The translations under genes and the position numbers were made by a program. From Candidatus Omnitrophota bacterium (GTDB taxonomy: Bacteria > Omnitrophota > Gorgyraeia > DTHP01), in the NCBI GenBank assembly GCA_023819145.1, contig JAMWCW010000003.1:4321-68320 (forward strand): DNA of 64,000 nucleotides, given 5' to 3'. Of the stretch, positions 23,879 through 31,098 are shown in pieces; the stretch's first letter is position 1, and each line of letters opens with the position of its first letter. The notes beneath the pieces were generated by a model. That model was given only the letters and a program-made list of their open reading frames with translations, was not told where the DNA came from and did no database searches.

Positions 23879-23911
23879 GCCCACAGAATAAAAAGTGGGC
23901 ATTTTGTTTTT
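23879..23911 (+). terminator. intrinsic terminator after GAF-ANTAR gene
   Basis: GCCCAC-agaataaaaa-GTGGGC then ATTTTGTTTTT. Confidence 0.65.
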
Positions 23912-23917
23912 GTTGAT

Positions 23918-25783
23918 ATGAATAAATTTGACATAATTGTAATTGGCGCAGGACATGCGGGTATTGAAGCCTCTTTAGCAGCAAGTAGAATGGGGCGTAG
24001 CGTTTTACTTATTACTTTAAAAAAGGAAACGATTGGTTTAATGTCCTGCAATCCCGCAATTGGCGGAGTGGGTAAAGGGCAGTTAGTAAAAGAGATAGAT
24101 GCGTTGGGTGGGGAGATGGCAAAAGCAGCAGATAATACAGGAATTCAATTTCGGATGCTTAACACATCCAAGGGGCCCGCGGTTTGGTCTTCTCGTTGCC
24201 AAGTAGATAGAAGGTTGTATCAAAAATATATGGAAAGCACGGTACTTAATCAAGAAAACCTTGTGGTTAAAGAGGGAGAAGTGGTGGGTTTAATAATAGA
24301 GCATAACAAAATTTTGGGTGTGGAGATGCTTAATGAGACAATATATGCAAAAGCGGTGGTTATTTCTACAGGAACTTTTTTAAATGGAGTTATCTATATC
24401 GGTTTAGATAGTTATCCTGCAGGAAGAATAAATGAACCTCCAAGCATAAGGTTAGCTCAAGCGCTTAGAAGTCTGGGTTTAGGAATGGGCCGGTTAAAAA
24501 CATGCACTACCGCTCGTTTGGATGGTAAGACAATAGATTTTTCTAAAATGATTGTTCAAGAAGGAGACGATGTTAGGAGGCCCTTTTCTTTTTTTACACT
24601 GGGTGCACAATTACCTCAAAAACCATGTTATTTGACTTACACAAATAAAAAGACCCATCGCATTATCTTAAAAGCCTTAAGAGACAAAAAACTTTTACAT
24701 ATTATAAGTCAAGGAGTAAATCCCCGGTATTGTCCTTCTATCGAAGAGAAAGTGTTGCGTTTTTCTGAGCGAGAAAGACACCAGATATTTGTTGAACCCG
24801 AGGGTTTAGATAGTGAAGAGTATTATACCAATGGATTATTCACTTTTTTGCCGAAAGAAGTGCAAAGAGAGTTTATTCAAACAATCCCAGGAATGGAAAA
24901 GGCAGAGATAACCAAATTTGGTTATGGGATTGAGTATGATTATGTTTATCCCACCCAGCTTTACCCAACATTAGAATCGAAATTAATCAAGAATCTATTT
25001 TTAGCAGGGCAAATCAATGGAACCACTGGTTACGAAGAGGCAGCCAGTCAAGGTTTAATTGCAGGTATTAATGCGGTTAAGAAAGTAGGGGGAGAAGAGC
25101 CATTCATTCTTGGACGTGACCAGGCATACATTGGGGTTTTAATTGATGATTTAGTAACCAAGGGAACAAACGAGCCGTATCGAATGTTTACCTCTCGTTG
25201 CGAGTATAGGCTCATTTTACGTGAGGGTAATGCGGATATTCGTTTAAGTGAGTTTGGCCATAAACTTGGCTTAATTAGAAAAGAGACATTTGGCAAAGTT
25301 AAAGAGAAAAAAGAGGCGATTCATAAAGGGATAGAATTACTTAAGAAGAAAAAACTTAAACCAAGTCCAGAGGTTAATCGTTTATTTAAAAATTTTGGTA
25401 TTCCTGAATTAAAAAAAGCCATTAGTTTTGCCCAATTGCTAAAAAGACCAGGGATTAATTGTGCTCATTTTAAAGAACTTGATATGAATCTTGAGAAAGT
25501 TATTTCCGAAAATGCTTTTTCTGAGATAGAAATTGAAATAAAGTACGAAGGCTATATTAATCGCCAGAAGGAAGAAGTGCGCCGGATGCAAAAGATAGAA
25601 AGAATTAAAATTCCTTCGGGATTTGAATATGCAAAAATTCCTGCTCTTTCAAGTGAAGTAAAAGAGAAACTTAATAAATTTAAGCCCTTAACCCTGGGGC
25701 AAGCCTCGAGAATATCCGGAGTTAATCCTTCTGCAATTTCTATTTTATGGGTATATTTAGAGAGAAAAAACTTAGTTAAATAA
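23918..25783 (+). CDS. mnmG: tRNA uridine-5-carboxymethylaminomethyl modification enzyme MnmG (GidA)
   Basis: 621 aa; FAD-binding FDIIVIGAGHAGIEA N-terminus and GidA-type C-terminal domain. Confidence 0.9.
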   Translation: MNKFDIIVIGAGHAGIEASLAASRMGRSVLLITLKKETIGLMSCNPAIGGVGKGQLVKEIDALGGEMAKAADNTGIQFRMLNTSKGPAVWSSRCQVDRRLYQKYMESTVLNQENLVVKEGEVVGLIIEHNKILGVEMLNETIYAKAVVISTGTFLNGVIYIGLDSYPAGRINEPPSIRLAQALRSLGLGMGRLKTCTTARLDGKTIDFSKMIVQEGDDVRRPFSFFTLGAQLPQKPCYLTYTNKKTHRIILKALRDKKLLHIISQGVNPRYCPSIEEKVLRFSERERHQIFVEPEGLDSEEYYTNGLFTFLPKEVQREFIQTIPGMEKAEITKFGYGIEYDYVYPTQLYPTLESKLIKNLFLAGQINGTTGYEEAASQGLIAGINAVKKVGGEEPFILGRDQAYIGVLIDDLVTKGTNEPYRMFTSRCEYRLILREGNADIRLSEFGHKLGLIRKETFGKVKEKKEAIHKGIELLKKKKLKPSPEVNRLFKNFGIPELKKAISFAQLLKRPGINCAHFKELDMNLEKVISENAFSEIEIEIKYEGYINRQKEEVRRMQKIERIKIPSGFEYAKIPALSSEVKEKLNKFKPLTLGQASRISGVNPSAISILWVYLERKNLVK

Positions 25784-25793
25784 TTACAAACAG

Positions 25794-26759
25794 ATGCAAG
25801 AAAAGATTATCAGTTTTCTACGCAAAAGTAAAGATTATATCTCAGGAGAAGAATTAAGTAAACTTACAGGAATTACCCGAGCGGAAGTTTGGAAACAAAT
25901 AGAGAGTCTGAGAAATCTTGGTTACGATATAGAAGCCTTACCACATTTGGGATATCGCTTGATAAGCCCTCCAGATAAGTTATTACCCGAGGAGATTACT
26001 TGGGATTTAGGGACAAAACTTATGGGAAAGAAGATTTTCTCATTTGAGGTTTTGGATTCCACTATGGATTTTACCCATGAATTAGGAATAAGGAACTTTC
26101 CCGAAGGAACAGTTGTTTGTAGTGAAACTCAGAAGAAAGGCAGGGGAAGAAGAGGCAGAGAGTGGTTTTCCCCAAAATATAAAGGATTATATTTTTCTAT
26201 TCTTTTGAAACCACAAATCTCTCCTAATCAAGCTCCACAGTTAACTATCCTTTCTGCGGTAGCGGTGAGAGAGGCCATATCTAACATTACGGGTTTAGAA
26301 TGCTTAATTAAATGGCCAAATGATATTTTAATTAGTGGGAAAAAGGTAGGGGGGATTCTTACGGAAATGGCGGAAATGGGGGCAGAAACCGAGAAAATTA
26401 AGTTTATTGTTCTAGGAATAGGCATAAATGTGAATACTGAAAAACACCTTCTTCCTACACAGGCAAGTTCTTTAAAAGAGGAAAGAAGGGAAAAATTTTC
26501 ACGCATTGAGTTATTGAAAGAAATTTTGCGTAAAATAGAAAGATACTATTTTTTATTTAAAGAGAAGGGCTTTTCTCCACTGGCTGAAGAGTGGAAGAAA
26601 TATTCTTGTATCCTTGGCCATCGGATAAAAATAATTTCCCAGCAAAAGGCCATAGAAGGAGAAGCAATTGACCTCGATAGAGAAGGCGCCCTTTTAGTGA
26701 GGAAGGATTCAGGATTTATAGAAAGAGTTTTTGCAGGAGATGTTGTAAAAATACGTTGA
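25794..26759 (+). CDS. birA: bifunctional biotin--[acetyl-CoA-carboxylase] ligase / biotin operon repressor
   Basis: 321 aa; N-terminal HTH, GRGRRGREW biotin-binding motif. Confidence 0.85.
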   Translation: MQEKIISFLRKSKDYISGEELSKLTGITRAEVWKQIESLRNLGYDIEALPHLGYRLISPPDKLLPEEITWDLGTKLMGKKIFSFEVLDSTMDFTHELGIRNFPEGTVVCSETQKKGRGRRGREWFSPKYKGLYFSILLKPQISPNQAPQLTILSAVAVREAISNITGLECLIKWPNDILISGKKVGGILTEMAEMGAETEKIKFIVLGIGINVNTEKHLLPTQASSLKEERREKFSRIELLKEILRKIERYYFLFKEKGFSPLAEEWKKYSCILGHRIKIISQQKAIEGEAIDLDREGALLVRKDSGFIERVFAGDVVKIR

Positions 26760-26840: not shown

Positions 26841-26868
26841 TTGACATAAGTTTTAATTATCATAAAAT
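26841..26868 (+). promoter_or_regulatory. sigma70-like promoter upstream of ATP-grasp/kamA cluster
   Basis: TTGACA (26841-26846), 16-nt spacer, TAAAAT (26863-26868). Confidence 0.45.
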
Positions 26869-26937
26869 ATTAACAGAAATCCTTAAAAGTAAAGGAGGTT
26901 GTAGTTAATTAAAATTGGATAAATTGTATTTATTTTA

Positions 26938-26967
26938 AGAGGCAAAAAAGAGAGCCTCTTTTTTTTT
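26938..26967 (+). terminator. intrinsic terminator-like hairpin in leader of ATP-grasp gene (candidate attenuator)
   Basis: AGAGGC-aaaaaagaga-GCCTCT followed by nine T; sits between promoter and ATG 26996. Confidence 0.6.
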
Positions 26968-26995
26968 GCCAAAAGAATCAAAAGAAGGAAATAAA

Positions 26996-27985
26996 ATGGG
27001 GAAGGTTGTAGGATTAACTTATGATTTAAAACAGGAATACGTTTTTAAGGAAGACGACCCTCCTGATGCCAATGCTGAATTCGACCATTGGCAGACAATC
27101 GATGCGATAGAGAGCGCTTTGGCAAAAGGAGGGCACAAGGTAGTAAAAATTGGAAATGTTTGTAATCTTCTTAGAAAATTAGACAAGATAAAAGCAGATA
27201 TCGTTTTTAATATCGCGGAAGGCATTCAGGGGAGAAATAGAGAATCGCAGGTTCCTGTAATCTTAGAACTAAAAGGTATTCCCTTCGTTGGTTCGGACGG
27301 ATTAACTTTAGCCCTTACTTTGGATAAACTTTTTGCAAAAAAAATTTTTATTGCCGAAGGTATTCCTACCCCCCGCTTCTTAGAAATTTCCCAACCCGAT
27401 ACTATAGGAAAATTTAATCTCAATTTTCCGCTTATTGTTAAACCACGTTACGAGGGTTCGAGCAAAGGGCTTTCTTTCGATTCCATGGTTAGAGATGTAA
27501 GGAGTTTGCGTGAGAGAGCAAATTGGATAATAAAGGCATACCGCCAACCTGCAATAGCAGAAGAGTTTATAAAAGGCAAGGAGTTCACAGTGGTGGTCTT
27601 AGGAAACAATCCTCCTAAAGCCCTCCCGCCGGTGCAAATAAGTATTGATGGAAGACTCAACTTGGGAGAGAGATTCTATACTTTTGGACACATTCGTTCA
27701 CGTTCCTTAAAATACATCTGCCCTGCAAAAATTTCTCAACGATTGCTTAAGCGAATCGGGGATTTAGCGATAGAAGTTTATCGAGCAGTGGAGTGTCGAG
27801 ACTTTGGGAGGGTGGATATAAGGGTTAATGAAAACGACGAACCGTTTGTATTAGAAATAAATCCTCTTCCCAGTCTTTCTTTAGCGGATGTATTTCCTAT
27901 TGTAGGAAGGCAGGTTGGTATGAAATACAAAGATATGATTAACCAAATTCTTAACTGTGCTTTAGAAAGGTATGGACTTTTATGA
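26996..27985 (+). CDS. ATP-grasp ligase, D-Ala-D-Ala ligase family (paralog 1)
   Basis: ATG at 26996 (ORF track TTG 26966 lies inside terminator T-run); Ddl-like blocks FNIAEGIQG, IPFVGS, LIVKP..EGSSKG, EEFI.GKEFTV, LEINPLP. Confidence 0.8.
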   Translation: MGKVVGLTYDLKQEYVFKEDDPPDANAEFDHWQTIDAIESALAKGGHKVVKIGNVCNLLRKLDKIKADIVFNIAEGIQGRNRESQVPVILELKGIPFVGSDGLTLALTLDKLFAKKIFIAEGIPTPRFLEISQPDTIGKFNLNFPLIVKPRYEGSSKGLSFDSMVRDVRSLRERANWIIKAYRQPAIAEEFIKGKEFTVVVLGNNPPKALPPVQISIDGRLNLGERFYTFGHIRSRSLKYICPAKISQRLLKRIGDLAIEVYRAVECRDFGRVDIRVNENDEPFVLEINPLPSLSLADVFPIVGRQVGMKYKDMINQILNCALERYGLL

Positions 27986-29013
27986 ATATTCTTCTTGTTT
28001 ATAATCTTAAGAGAAAGAATCTTTCTAAAGGAGTCCCTCCTGATTTTTATTCTGAATTCGATTCATATAAAACAGTAGGTTCTATTGCCGAGGCTTTAAG
28101 GAAAAAGGGACACAAGGTTAATTTGGTAGAGGCTAACAACCAACTAATCGCTTATCTTTTAAGAAATAGAGAGAAGATAGATTTTGTTTTTAATATTGCC
28201 GAGGGCATAAATGGTTATTCCAGTCGAGAATCTCAAATTCCCGCTATTCTCGATTTCCTTAGAATTCCCTATACCGGTTCAAACGTCTTGGCTATGGCAG
28301 TTGCCTTGGATAAAGCCTATACTAAGAAACTGTGTCTTGCAGAAGGCATCCCTACTCCAAAATTTCAACTCTTTGTTACCGGAAGAGAAAAGTTAGATTC
28401 CGCTCTTCGTTTTCCTTTGATTGTTAAGCCTAATGCGGAAGGTTCTGCCAAAGGTATTTATCGAGATTCGGTTGTCTATGATAGAAAGAACCTTTTAGAG
28501 AAGATAAAAAGGGTAATGTGCAATTATAAACAGTCAGTATTAGTTGAAGAATTTATTGTTGGTAAAGAACTAACTGTAGGAATTATTGGTAATGATAGCC
28601 CATTAGTTCTTCCTATCCTTGAGATCGATTTTAGTTCCTGTCGTGGTTCAGGAGAATTTTTTTATTCTTGGAGGATGAAAGAGTTTCAAGGAAACCAAGA
28701 ACAACATCTTACTCCCACTTTTTACTGTCCCGCAAGATTAAAACCTGATACAGCAGCAGAAATTTCTCATTTAGCTTTGAAAGCTTACAAGGCTTTGGGA
28801 TGTTACGATTTCTGTCGTATAGATTTTAGGTTAGATAAAAAAAACAGGCCGTATCTTTTGGAGATAAATCCTCTACCGGGGCTAGATCCCCTGGAGAGTA
28901 ATTTACCTTTGATGGCAAGGACCGCGGGAATAAATTATAACCAGTTGATTAATAAAATATTAGAATCGGCAGTAAAAAGAGTAAATGGAAAGTTGAACAG
29001 GGGAAAGAAATGA
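27982..29013 (+). CDS. ATP-grasp ligase, D-Ala-D-Ala ligase family (paralog 2)
   Basis: 343 aa; IPYTGS, LIVKPNAEGSAKG, EEFIVGKELTV, YLLEINPLPG; ATGA overlap with paralog 1. Confidence 0.8.
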   Translation: MNILLVYNLKRKNLSKGVPPDFYSEFDSYKTVGSIAEALRKKGHKVNLVEANNQLIAYLLRNREKIDFVFNIAEGINGYSSRESQIPAILDFLRIPYTGSNVLAMAVALDKAYTKKLCLAEGIPTPKFQLFVTGREKLDSALRFPLIVKPNAEGSAKGIYRDSVVYDRKNLLEKIKRVMCNYKQSVLVEEFIVGKELTVGIIGNDSPLVLPILEIDFSSCRGSGEFFYSWRMKEFQGNQEQHLTPTFYCPARLKPDTAAEISHLALKAYKALGCYDFCRIDFRLDKKNRPYLLEINPLPGLDPLESNLPLMARTAGINYNQLINKILESAVKRVNGKLNRGKK

Positions 29014-29029
29014 AAGGAGGGAGGTTCAT

Positions 29030-30301
29030 TTGAATACGCTTATTTATAGCAATAGAGTGACCAGTCTATGGCAAGATGTCTCTGAAGAGGAGTGGGAAGA
29101 TTGGCATTGGCAGTTAAAGAATCGGATTACCACCTTAAATGAATTACGGCAGGTTATTCAAGTTGTTCCGGAGGAGGAAGAAGGAATAAAGGTTTCACGG
29201 GGAAGGCTTGCTATGGCCATTACTCCTTATTTTGCGAGCCTTATGGACCCTCTGAGACCAAATTGCCCTATCCGAAGACAGGCAGTTCCTTTACTTGATG
29301 AAACTTTTATTAGTTCTTATGATATGCTTGACCCTTGCGGAGAGGACAAATCTTCTCCTGTTCCGGGCCTCGTCCACCGCTATCCTGACCGAGTCCTTTT
29401 ATTAGTTACTGAACATTGTGCGATGTATTGCCGTCATTGTACCAGACGGAGGATGGTAGGAGAAAAAGAATCTTGCCTTGCCCCAAACCACCTTGTCCAG
29501 GCATATGATTATATCCGTTCCAACAAAAAAGTTCGCGATGTGCTTATTTCCGGTGGCGACCCCTTAATACTTTCCGATGAAAAGTTAGAGGAAATTATTA
29601 AGAATATCCGTGCCATACCTCATGTAGAATTTTTACGCATTGGAACACGTGTGCCCGTAACCTTGCCCATGCGTGTTAATTCTGAGTTAGTTTCCATGTT
29701 AAAACGTTATGCACCTATTTGGATAAGTCTTCATTTCAATCACCCCAAGGAAATAACTAAGAGGTGTAAGATTGCTTGTGATATGCTTACTGATAACGGA
29801 ATTCCTTTAGGTAGTCAGACGGTGCTTCTTAAGGGAATAAATGACCGTCCCTATATCATGAAAAAACTAATGCACGAACTTTTAAAGATTAGGGTCCGGC
29901 CTTATTACATCTATCAATGCGACCTCGCCCGCGGTACAAGTCACTTCCGCACGCCTGTTTCGGTAGGGATAAATATTATAGAAAAGTTGAGGGGGCATAC
30001 TACGGGTTATGCAGTGCCTACTTATGTTGTAGATGCTCCAGGGGGAGGCGGGAAAATTCCTGTGGCACCTAACTATATTATATCTCAGGCTAAAAACCAA
30101 TTTATCTTGCGTAATTACGAAGGCAAGGTATTTACTTATTTTGAAGATTCCACTAGTTATCTTACCGGGACAAGAAAATACTTTACAAACATCCCTTTTT
30201 TTGGTAGACTGAAATACAAACAGGAGACCTTGCAAAAACAATTCTTTTTTGATTTCTTAGAAACAAAGAAAGAAGAAAATTCCCTTTCCCGGGCGGCATA
30301 A
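29030..30301 (+). CDS. kamA: lysine 2,3-aminomutase (radical SAM, KamA family)
   Basis: 423 aa; CAMYCRHCTRRR 4Fe-4S motif, PVPGLVHRYPDRVLLL, VDAPGGGGK; TTG start with AGGAGGGAGG RBS. Confidence 0.9.
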   Translation: MNTLIYSNRVTSLWQDVSEEEWEDWHWQLKNRITTLNELRQVIQVVPEEEEGIKVSRGRLAMAITPYFASLMDPLRPNCPIRRQAVPLLDETFISSYDMLDPCGEDKSSPVPGLVHRYPDRVLLLVTEHCAMYCRHCTRRRMVGEKESCLAPNHLVQAYDYIRSNKKVRDVLISGGDPLILSDEKLEEIIKNIRAIPHVEFLRIGTRVPVTLPMRVNSELVSMLKRYAPIWISLHFNHPKEITKRCKIACDMLTDNGIPLGSQTVLLKGINDRPYIMKKLMHELLKIRVRPYYIYQCDLARGTSHFRTPVSVGINIIEKLRGHTTGYAVPTYVVDAPGGGGKIPVAPNYIISQAKNQFILRNYEGKVFTYFEDSTSYLTGTRKYFTNIPFFGRLKYKQETLQKQFFFDFLETKKEENSLSRAA

Positions 30302-30359
30302 GCAGGGCCCGTTTATATAGATTAATTCCTTTTAAAAGGGAAAAAGGAGGTGAAGTAAA

Positions 30360-31040
30360 ATGAACTGGAAAGAACTTTTGGTAGATCCGTTTAAAGAAAT
30401 GCTTGCACGGTTTTTTGGTTTTCTGCCTACCTTGGTAAAAGTTTTAGTAGTACTTATTGTAGGTTGGCTTCTCGCTAAGTTTATTCAGAGGCTTATTACC
30501 CGTGGGCTTAAGCTAGCAAGACTTGATGTTTTAGCAGAGCGCTGTGGAATTCACCGGTTTCTCTCTAAAGGGGAAATAAAACATACCCTCTCTGAGCTTT
30601 TGGGAATTCTTGTTTATTGGTTTATGCTTATTGCCGTGGGCATAACGGTGATAAACGTCTTGGGACTTACGGTAGCGCAGGACCTTTTTAGCAAAATAGT
30701 CCTCTATATCCCGAAAGTGGTCGCCTCCATATTTATTCTGGTTGTGGGAATATTTTTTGCCACTTTTATGAATACCAGTGTACGCACCGCTTCTACAAAT
30801 GCGGGAATTAGTCAAGCCAGATTATTAGGGCAACTCACCCAAATTGCCATTATCATTTTCTCAATAGCTATTGCTGCGGAGCAACTAAATATCGGAACCA
30901 GAATAATCAGTTCTTTGGTAACTATCCTTTTAGGTTCTATTGGACTGGCGGTAGGTCTGGCTTTCGGTTTGGGTTGTAAAGAAATGGCAGCCAGATTTCT
31001 TCAGGATTGGTTAGAAAAGACTAAAACAAAAACTTGGTAG
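30360..31040 (+). CDS. integral membrane protein with MscS-like conserved TM-helix repeats
   Basis: 226 aa; several hydrophobic helices with repeated basic-flanked segments; family assignment tentative. Confidence 0.6.
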   Translation: MNWKELLVDPFKEMLARFFGFLPTLVKVLVVLIVGWLLAKFIQRLITRGLKLARLDVLAERCGIHRFLSKGEIKHTLSELLGILVYWFMLIAVGITVINVLGLTVAQDLFSKIVLYIPKVVASIFILVVGIFFATFMNTSVRTASTNAGISQARLLGQLTQIAIIIFSIAIAAEQLNIGTRIISSLVTILLGSIGLAVGLAFGLGCKEMAARFLQDWLEKTKTKTW

Positions 31041-31066: not shown

Positions 31067-31098
31067 GGGAGAGCGAGAGCTCTCCCTTTTTGTATTTT
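31067..31098 (+). terminator. intrinsic terminator after membrane protein gene
   Basis: GGGAGAGC-gaga-GCTCTCCC hairpin followed by TTTTTGTATTTT. Confidence 0.75.

Follow-up and report, generated by a model that had tools for sequence, protein, structure and literature searches.

The window, by which the whole 64-kb stretch of DNA analysed here is meant, carries around the site under study a run of genes that all lie on the + strand: mnmG, birA, two ATP-grasp genes, a KamA-family gene, an MscS-TM-like gene and ychF. The intergenic region between birA and the first ATP-grasp gene measures 236 nt, and in it are found a promoter, a leader with a Shine-Dalgarno (SD) sequence and a mini-ORF, and an intrinsic terminator. 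The four genes that follow are taken as the putatively controlled operon. The coordinates of all features are presented in Table 1.

Table 1. Features of the leader and of its surroundings in the window.
Feature	Position	Strand	Details
mnmG	23918-25783	+	
birA	25794-26759	+	Directly upstream of the leader in the window
Sigma-70-type promoter	26841-26868	+	-35 TTGACA 26841-26846, 16-nt spacer, -10 TAAAAT 26863-26868
Conserved leader module	26889-26969	+	SD, spacer, NTG, A-rich tract and terminator; covariance model R1
SD-like sequence	26891-26898	+	AAAGGAGG; GGAGG conserved in relatives
Mini-ORF	26915-26938	+	TTG GAT AAA TTG TAT TTA TTT TAA (MDKLYLF*); conserved NTG start
Intrinsic terminator	26937-26967	+	5' arm AAGAGGC 26937-26943, 10-nt loop 26944-26953, 3' arm GCCTCTT 26954-26960, T9 26959-26967
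SD of ATP-grasp 1	26984-26989	+	GAAGGA, followed by ATG 26996-26998; read from the sequence
Putatively controlled operon	26996-31040	+	ATP-grasp 1, ATP-grasp 2, aminomutase, MscS-TM-like
Ddl-like ATP-grasp 1	26996-27985	+	Pfam
Ddl-like ATP-grasp 2	27982-29013	+	Pfam
AblA-type lysine 2,3-aminomutase	29030-30301	+	KamA-family radical-SAM; Pfam, NCBIfam
MscS-TM-like protein	30360-31040	+	Pfam
Probable operon-end terminator	31068-31093	+	GGAGAGC gaga GCTCTCC CTTTTTGTA; hairpin-plus-T-run scan; just before ychF

Downstream operon

The aminomutase scores 539 bits against the NCBIfam equivalog model TIGR03820 (lys_2_3_AblA) and thereby passes its cut-off of 525.4; its nearest solved structure is that of an L-lysine 2,3-aminomutase (2a5h). 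Both ATP-grasp ligases score below all Ddl cut-offs in NCBIfam, and an exact-sequence look-up of the ATP-grasp protein, with either start, returned no record. The N-terminus of the first ligase, M(x)K(x)VGLTYDLK, is kept in its orthologues. The order first ligase, second ligase, AblA is kept in every related locus with a long enough contig, and the more distant loci L006-L009 have one ligase only. The MscS-like gene lies downstream in the window and in loci L001 and L002, and directly upstream of the module in about eight loci.

Read from the gene content, the pathway probably leads from lysine to beta-lysine and then through two Ddl-like ligations, the product being a beta-lysine-containing solute or peptide. 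This lysine-consuming operon is probably tied to osmotic stress. In Dehalobacter, ablA stands behind terminator-type riboswitches (a tandem of Na+-I/DUF1646 and c-di-AMP riboswitches), a form of control that fits a role of the gene in the synthesis of the osmolyte beta-lysine (PMC9337991).

Promoter and terminator

The promoter matches 11 of the 12 hexamer positions. Sites with at least 11 of 12 matches number nine in the window, whereas dinucleotide shuffles have 1.7 on average; the coding (+) strand carries eight of the nine. TTGACA-N17-TGnTAAAA stands at the homologous position in about 65 related loci. The promoter is absent in the roughly eight loci with the MscS-like gene directly upstream, and the unit of SD, NTG and terminator is still there. 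In the window, transcription is predicted to start at about 26875-26876.

The hairpin starts 69 nt downstream of the -10 element, and its T-run ends 28 nt before the ATG of the first ATP-grasp gene. The stem has 7 bp, of which four are G-C pairs, its canonical fold reaches -8.8 kcal/mol, and seven T of the T9 run fall beyond it. The preliminary description had read a TTGACA-16-TAAAAT promoter, an AGAGGC/GCCTCT stem, nine T and the distance to the ATG from the letters, and each of these was recovered to within 1-2 nt.

Two terminator scans were considered, a built-in one that allows loops of at most 8 nt and a wider one that allows loops of up to 12 nt. The former missed the hairpin only because of its cap, given the 10-nt loop. 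With the latter, the hairpin is among ten terminators on the plus strand of the window, where about two are expected. Since promoter sites and hairpins with T-runs are both enriched in the window, the organism seems to use both types of signal. Terminator-like hairpins also stand right before other genes of the window, at 23879-23900 and 31068-31085.

Aligned across its relatives, the hairpin singled out in the preliminary description proved to be conserved. In a model-fitted alignment of 79 sequences, the stem is paired in 91% of cells, and seven of the nine stem pairs are altered on both sides by compensatory changes; the covariation score was reached by none of 500 shuffles, and pairing falls to 11-64% in controls with slid partners. 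In locus L003 the stem differs in sequence (GGGGCATA/TATGCCTC).

The preliminary description had listed among its refuting conditions that the hairpin might belong to a convergent transcript. Read in the minus orientation, the hairpin lacks a U-tract, and every neighbouring gene is on the + strand; hence, it is not the terminator of a convergent transcript. Neither sequence reading nor the hairpin scan revealed any other terminator between the birA stop at 26759 and the hairpin, so transcripts coming from mnmG and birA probably also end there. The 3' ends of the RNA would fall in the U-tract, at about 26964-26967, giving an RNA of about 90 nt.

Conservation of the leader module

ATP-grasp relatives were taken from genomes and metagenomes, which gave 90 orthologous loci with 50-82% protein identity. 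The best genome matches are metagenome-assembled genomes of Candidatus Omnitrophota (82, 81, 75, 61 and 58% identity), and 80 metagenomic loci have an ATP-grasp identity of 57-63%. The closest loci (L001-L003) present another upstream gene (outer-membrane-like), a near-identical promoter, the same GGAGG...TTAATTAAAATTGGAYAAAT tract, and the hairpin with its U-tract. The order in the metagenomic loci is CTTGACA-N17-TGnTAAAA, a variable stretch, GGAGG, about 14 nt, TTG with an A run, about 20 nt, hairpin with U-tract, and ATG.

A covariance model, R1, was built from 53 related leader sequences. In the window, the model yields a single significant match, at the position of the module (53.1 bits, E = 2.6e-7), the next best having E = 0.32. 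Of the 90 orthologous loci, 79 gave exactly one match each, in every case just ahead of the ATP-grasp gene and in its orientation. No match was obtained in loci L010-L080, which hold distant Ddl homologues, and neither the window nor the locus flanks contain a second copy of the module. Given this conservation across orthologous loci, the layout is not due to chance.

The gene upstream of the module varies: it is birA in the window, an outer-membrane-like gene in L001-L003 and the MscS-like gene in about eight loci. As judged from the arrangement of the loci, the module follows the ATP-grasp operon and not the upstream gene. The same locus comparison revealed no regulator gene kept beside the module.

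Leader Shine-Dalgarno sequence and mini-ORF

GGAGG is present in 77 non-redundant loci, 12-16 nt (mode 14) upstream of the NTG, the distance in the window being 16 nt; in the relatives it is preceded by U-rich sequence. The ordinary genes of the window mostly have their SD 5-10 nt from the start, and the long spacing in the leader means that initiation at the NTG may be poor. The start codon of the mini-ORF is TTG in 70 loci, GTG in six, ATG in one and CTG in none. The surrounding sequence reads AAA-NTG-RAAAAA, and A accounts for at least 90% at each of positions -2, +4, +6 and +7; the third codon positions +5 and +8 are more variable, so that the variation from +3 to +8 is codon-like. A real start codon at the NTG is thus supported by a first position that is T, G or A and never C, by the flexible SD spacing and by the codon-like variation. 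On these grounds the mini-ORF is presumably translated.

The NTG lies 19-28 nt before the hairpin in the 77 loci (mode 22-25; 22 nt in the window), whereas the distance from the hairpin to the ATP-grasp ATG ranges from 6 to 278 nt across loci, with a mode of 13-16. Hence, the constrained spacing is that between start codon and terminator.

The mini-ORF itself varies greatly in length: among the 77 loci it has three codons in 16, five in 18, seven in 10 and 18-26 in about 23, and it does not exceed eight codons in 48 (seven in the window). The encoded peptide ranges from 1 to more than 40 residues, and only residues 1-3 are alike. Its frame shifts even among the closest relatives (MDKLYLF*, MDKCFVL* and MDKLYFLKRQKKEPLFFCQ*), and a conserved leader peptide is ruled out by this variation in length and frame. 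The preliminary description had seen no convincing leader-peptide ORF, which goes too far: the conserved TTG start at 26915 with its SD had been overlooked. Insertions or deletions of 1 nt occur between loci in the A run after the NTG, which indicates that the tract is kept as nucleotides rather than as codons.

A stop codon ahead of the hairpin is found in frame 0 in 48 of the 77 loci and in the other two frames in 34 and 43; this frame comparison detected no selection on ORF length or stop position. In the window, the ORF ends with TAA at 26936-26938, and the terminator stem has its first two bases within this codon. Relative to the stem, the stop is at -4 or later in 41 of the 77 loci and at -19 to -7 in the remaining 36, where the edge of a terminating ribosome would only abut the stem rather than cover it. 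Lysine is encoded at codon 2 or 3 (one or two codons) in 63 of the 77 loci and at neither in 14, the A-rich context being also that of a strong start. The three-codon ORFs of 16 loci read MEK, MKK, MKN or MEN, and the ORF of the window begins with MDK. From the pattern of conservation, the conserved unit is a ribosome-loading site with the first two to three codons, held at a fixed distance from the terminator, and not the peptide.

Known RNA families and alternative structures

The preliminary description had offered a riboswitch as one version of the attenuator layout, and a covariance-model scan for known families lends it no support. At the gathering score, Rfam 15 yielded only a tRNA in the whole window. 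Between 26700 and 27100, up to E = 10, only unrelated families appeared, with E values of at least 0.4 and scores far under the gathering scores, and 20 related loci gave no matches; no leader family was thus found in any of these searches. The lysine, Na+-I/DUF1646 and c-di-AMP riboswitch families, which are contained in Rfam 15, had no match at the gathering score.

Structure prediction led to the same outcome. Applied to 79 core sequences, RNAalifold returned the terminator helix only, with no aptamer, antiterminator or pause hairpin. For the 5' parts of 61 leaders RNAalifold gave no consensus fold, and their mean folding z-score is 0.09; the leader of the window (26870-26995) folds no better than its shuffles (z = -1.2). 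The part of that leader ahead of the hairpin comprises only about 60 nt and is A/U-rich. Since the leader has no Rfam match and, ahead of the hairpin, no conserved structure, it is unlikely to contain a riboswitch aptamer or an antiterminator of the classical kind.

Several specific candidates were considered and rejected. The only plausible alternative pairing, that of the A run or UAGG with the 3' arm or the U-tract (CCUUAUUUUU) as an antiterminator, is complementary, but the variants do not covary. Sequestration of the SD by pairing of UCCUU (26880-26884) with AAGGA (26892-26896) applies to the window and is absent in L001-L003 and elsewhere, and no conserved pairing that hides the SD was found. 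A tail resembling that of preQ1-I riboswitches (AAAAACUAGG) has neither a P1 helix nor an Rfam match. As for GGA sites for CsrA, UUGAAAAAA occurs in a third of the loci, without GGA. A -1 frameshift cassette like that of dnaX (SD, A run and hairpin) has no incoming ORF, and a bypass like that of T4 gene 60 is inconsistent between loci. A sigma-54 promoter and a G-quadruplex were considered from the sequence and dropped.

Proposed mechanism

The leader is very probably a cis-acting transcription attenuator of some kind. The preliminary description had called a terminator within a leader the classic layout of attenuation control, and this part of it is upheld by the compensatory changes in the hairpin, by the module following the operon and by the 13-16 nt to the ATG. 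In most loci this distance leaves no room for a promoter, which implies that the operon is transcribed only by read-through. Given that the module also travels with the operon and that the spacing between start codon and hairpin is tight, premature termination probably has to be overcome for the operon to be expressed. The module is an undescribed leader, conserved at the phylum level in the uncultivated Omnitrophota, and most likely an on/off switch that acts through premature termination.

What sets the read-through is far less certain, and we give a mechanism based on the position of a ribosome on the mini-ORF an even chance of being correct. In this mechanism, the strong promoter would fire into a leader of about 60 nt without stable structure, which offers a strong SD, a UUG in A-rich context and a very short ORF. 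By default, most transcripts would stop at the U-tract (about 26964-26967) as the RNA of about 90 nt, and read-through transcripts alone would carry the operon of two ATP-grasp genes, lysine 2,3-aminomutase and MscS-like gene. The position of the first ribosome would decide between these outcomes. A ribosome initiating on the UUG would cover the RNA to about +16, so that the stem, at +22, stays free; one that has moved at least two codons further would extend onto or into the 5' arm with its leading edge, and a ribosome that stands at the stop codon of the window (26936-26938) would cover the whole 5' arm. There it would block the stem base and RNA polymerase would read through. We infer that the ribosome acts in this direction. 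Ribosome progress through the first codons (Asp-Lys in the window, Glu/Lys-Lys in most relatives) would hence set the level of the lysine-consuming operon. For ORFs of three codons, whose stop is at -13, the edge of the terminating ribosome would be at the first stem base, provided that the toeprint lies at +16 as determined for a tripeptide uORF (PMC9226507).

Possible signals are the supply of lysine, translation stress in general, and the osmotic or ionic state of the cell's surroundings. Lysine supply is a candidate since lysine is encoded at codon 2 or 3 in most loci, upstream of an operon that consumes it. A specific version of the model would be a structure-free, inverted amino-acid attenuator, in which charged Lys-tRNA lets the ribosome advance and thereby allows read-through into the beta-lysine operon. 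Here a ribosome held at codons 2-3 would end just short of the stem, and one that has advanced would overlap its beginning, so that with scarce lysine or an arrest at initiation the terminator would form, without any antiterminator RNA. This version appears unlikely.

Four results weaken the ribosome-position model. The spacing between SD and start is longer than in ordinary genes. There is no detectable selection on ORF length or stop, and the stem would be merely touched in about half of the loci. No pause or alternative structure exists to synchronise the ribosome with RNA polymerase. Finally, the tract is conserved as nucleotides, and only 63 of 77 loci encode lysine at codon 2 or 3.

Alternative explanations

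Some of these same results would fit an attenuator that responds to a trans-acting factor or to a physical signal rather than to translation of the uORF. A protein, a small RNA, or K+, Na+ or temperature would act on the single-stranded U-rich/GGAGG/AAAUUGRAAAAA tract or directly on the weak hairpin and alter how efficiently transcription terminates; the NTG would then belong to a binding site. Nucleotide-level conservation of the tract with its 1-nt indels, an SD spacing atypical for a genuine start and the unconstrained ORF length all agree with this, as does an operon context linked to osmotic stress (AblA, MscS-like); elsewhere, moreover, ablA is under terminator riboswitches that sense ions and second messengers (PMC9337991). 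However, no conserved fold or pocket and no match to a known family was found, no regulator gene is conserved beside the module, the gap of 12-19 nt between GGAGG and NTG suits an SD and start codon better than a rigid bipartite site, and the first position of the NTG varies just as start codons do. We therefore regard such a factor or signal as improbable. A functional micropeptide (MDKLYLF in the window) would account for the conserved SD and start codon, but a product that ranges from 1 to more than 40 residues, with frame shifts between close relatives, makes this explanation barely worth entertaining.

Two further explanations dispense with a regulated switch in the leader. The RNA of about 90 nt (26875-26967) might come from a free-standing sRNA gene that acts in trans, read-through into the operon being incidental; the preliminary description had named this as its other option. 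The unit brings a strong promoter and a terminator of its own, its conserved single-stranded, purine-rich tract could act as a seed or sponge up proteins, and terminated attenuator RNAs can act in trans, as is reported for rnTrpL (PMC7968998). Yet wherever it occurs the module shares the strand of the ATP-grasp gene and stands immediately before it; the gap to the ATG is usually 13-16 nt, and there is no second promoter. That distance leaves no room for a promoter, and on this count the free-standing version is quite unlikely. In about eight loci, in addition, the module has no promoter of its own and lies inside a transcription unit from the MscS-like gene to the ATP-grasp gene, and it is present as a single copy in the 64-kb window, with none elsewhere in the flanks of the loci. 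The terminated RNA could hold a second role beside attenuation. Alternatively, the hairpin might simply be the terminator of the upstream unit (mnmG-birA), with a promoter ahead of it by chance and a constitutive leak that tunes expression. This would agree with the absence of another terminator between the birA stop at 26759 and the hairpin, and with the similar hairpins before other genes of the window (23879-23900 and 31068-31085). It is at odds with the promoter-first order, the SD-NTG tract and the spacing of 19-28 nt, which are kept in about 80 loci with differing upstream genes, and an insulator would need no ribosome-binding site and start codon at a fixed distance; we consider it as doubtful as the sRNA.

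Significance

The Omnitrophota are uncultivated and their gene regulation is barely known. The module provides a clearly delimited and widely conserved element (79 loci) that is absent from Rfam, and it points to conditional control of an uncharacterised beta-lysine pathway beside an MscS-like protein. It may also represent a minimal type of attenuator, with the ribosome as its sole antiterminator and with a uORF that can be reduced to three codons. If the inverted, structure-free version were true, it would amount to a new design principle for attenuators in an uncultivated phylum.

Comparison with known attenuators

In the E. coli pyrBI leader and in rph-pyrE, a ribosome that translates up to or into the hairpin blocks the terminator, and no alternative fold is needed. 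The pyr leaders have longer ORFs, and UTP-sensitive pausing couples the ribosome to RNA polymerase. The module studied here likewise has a leader terminator, with a uORF stop that overlaps the stem base in the window and U-rich sequence before the hairpin. It differs in that the ORF may have only three codons and, in about half of the loci, ends 7-19 nt short of the stem, and no nucleotide-sensing logic is evident.

The trp, his, leu and thr attenuators share with the module a leader ORF before a terminator, upstream of genes of amino-acid metabolism. The lysine codons at positions 2-3 in 63 of 77 loci, ahead of an operon that consumes lysine, add to this likeness. However, the module has no tandem regulatory codons, no 2:3 antiterminator and no Rfam leader family, and its logic would be inverted, with read-through when lysine is plentiful.

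The Dehalobacter ablA riboswitches control the same kind of gene, a lysine 2,3-aminomutase, from behind an intrinsic terminator in the leader (PMC9337991). Unlike them, the module has no aptamer and no Rfam family, and its leader is unstructured upstream of the hairpin.

For vmlR, an ABCF resistance gene of B. subtilis, the tripeptide uORFs MIN, MDN, MDK and MRK were shown experimentally to control an intrinsic terminator (PMC9226507). In both systems an SD and a very short uORF stand shortly before an intrinsic terminator in the 5' leader, and MIN, MDN, MDK and MRK resemble the MEK, MKK, MKN, MEN and MDK... found here. The sequence past the first codons matters little, and ribosome position is the proposed input in both. 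On the other hand, vmlR uses mutually exclusive anti-antiterminator, antiterminator and terminator hairpins together with a NusG pause hairpin, whereas only the terminator is conserved in the present module: the anti-antiterminator hairpin that holds the uORF is not conserved here, nor is the antiterminator. The SD spacing in the module is 12-16 nt, its operon is one for beta-lysine (Ddl-like ligases, AblA and MscS-like) and not an ABCF gene of the vmlR/lmo0919 type, which is induced by PTC-targeting antibiotics, and there is no evident sequence homology. Although it lacks the alternative structures of the trp and vmlR types, the module belongs functionally with the uORF-dependent or translation-coupled attenuators.

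Start region and second -10-like hexamer of the leader

In most of the related loci L082-L160, which carry orthologues of the ATP-grasp 1 gene, a -10-like hexamer (TACAAT, TATAAT or TATGAT) followed by TTTAGG is conserved approximately 8-14 nt 3' of the promoter -10. This hexamer and its TTTAGG are absent from the window. Its bases in part mirror ATATTGTG, which lies directly 5' of the first -10. The hexamer may represent either a second promoter that overlaps the first (TTGTGA-17-TACAAT) or a promoter-proximal pause element that depends on sigma.

In the window, L001, L002 and L135, an NTG with an immediate stop codon (TTG TAG, TTG TGA, GTG TAG or TTG TAA) begins 0-1 nt 3' of the leader's GGAGG. 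In this group the pair cannot serve as a start, given that the Shine-Dalgarno sequence is too near. The leader core of another four loci (L105, L110, L112 and L121) contains a small hairpin, AGUUGGA-N4-UUCAACU, which has the TTG start in its 5' arm and a variable loop of 4 nt (UAGA, UAAU, CAUC or UAUU). Because M-D-x-F-N-stop is encoded by these very bases, a hairpin that sequesters the start and a five-codon upstream reading frame are indistinguishable in these loci.

Predicted alternative fold of the terminator region

When the terminator region of the window is folded in isolation, the minimum-free-energy structure is not the canonical terminator but a helix of 12 bp, GGCAAAAAAGAG/UUUUUUUUUGCC (-12.4 kcal/mol), in which the A-rich loop pairs with the U-tract and with the GCC 3' of it. 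This helix can form in read-through transcripts only. Its GGC...GCC arrangement is also present in L002.

Downstream operon and other signals in the window

The operon order of ATP-grasp 1, ATP-grasp 2 and the AblA-type gene is kept in approximately 70 Omnitrophota-like loci among L001-L009 and L081-L160, and the MscS-TM-like gene adjoins it either upstream or downstream, depending on the locus. Neither Ddl-like ligase reached any D-Ala-D-Ala ligase cut-off. The product is perhaps a beta-lysine-containing peptide or solute, and appears to be uncharacterised.

Eight additional near-consensus sigma-70 promoters (11-12/12 matches), nearly all on the + strand, are found in the window, versus 1.7 expected in shuffles.

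Features of the window
Feature	Position	Strand	Remark
NTG-stop pair	26899-26904
Region folded in isolation	26940-26969
Operon	26996-31040		Ddl-like ATP-grasp 1, Ddl-like ATP-grasp 2, AblA-type lysine 2,3-aminomutase, MscS-TM-like
Terminator-like hairpin, T-run	23879-23900		directly before mnmG start (23918)
Terminator-like hairpin, T-run	31068-31085		directly before ychF start (31090); reads as terminator on minus strand too
Sigma-70 promoter	8891	+
Sigma-70 promoter	33023	+	TTGACA-16-TAAAAT, identical to leader promoter
Sigma-70 promoter	35430	+
Sigma-70 promoter	49621	+
Sigma-70 promoter	49830	+
Sigma-70 promoter	52279	+
Sigma-70 promoter	53400	+
Sigma-70 promoter	60616	-

Insertions between terminator and ATP-grasp gene

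Insertions of 100-280 nt separate the U-tract from the ATP-grasp ATG in L083, L092, L102, L103, L116, L119, L138, L153 and L160, and also in L005. Rfam yielded no match in the insertion-bearing loci L005, L083, L092, L102, L103, L119, L138 and L160. The insertions share the ends AATGAG...CTCATT and contain long hairpins with compensatory changes (e.g., GCGCATAACTTACG/CGTAAGTTATATGCGC versus GGGCATAACTTATG/CATAAGTTATATGCCC), which are followed by GAATTAATCCC... modules. They resemble palindromic elements of the MITE or REP type.
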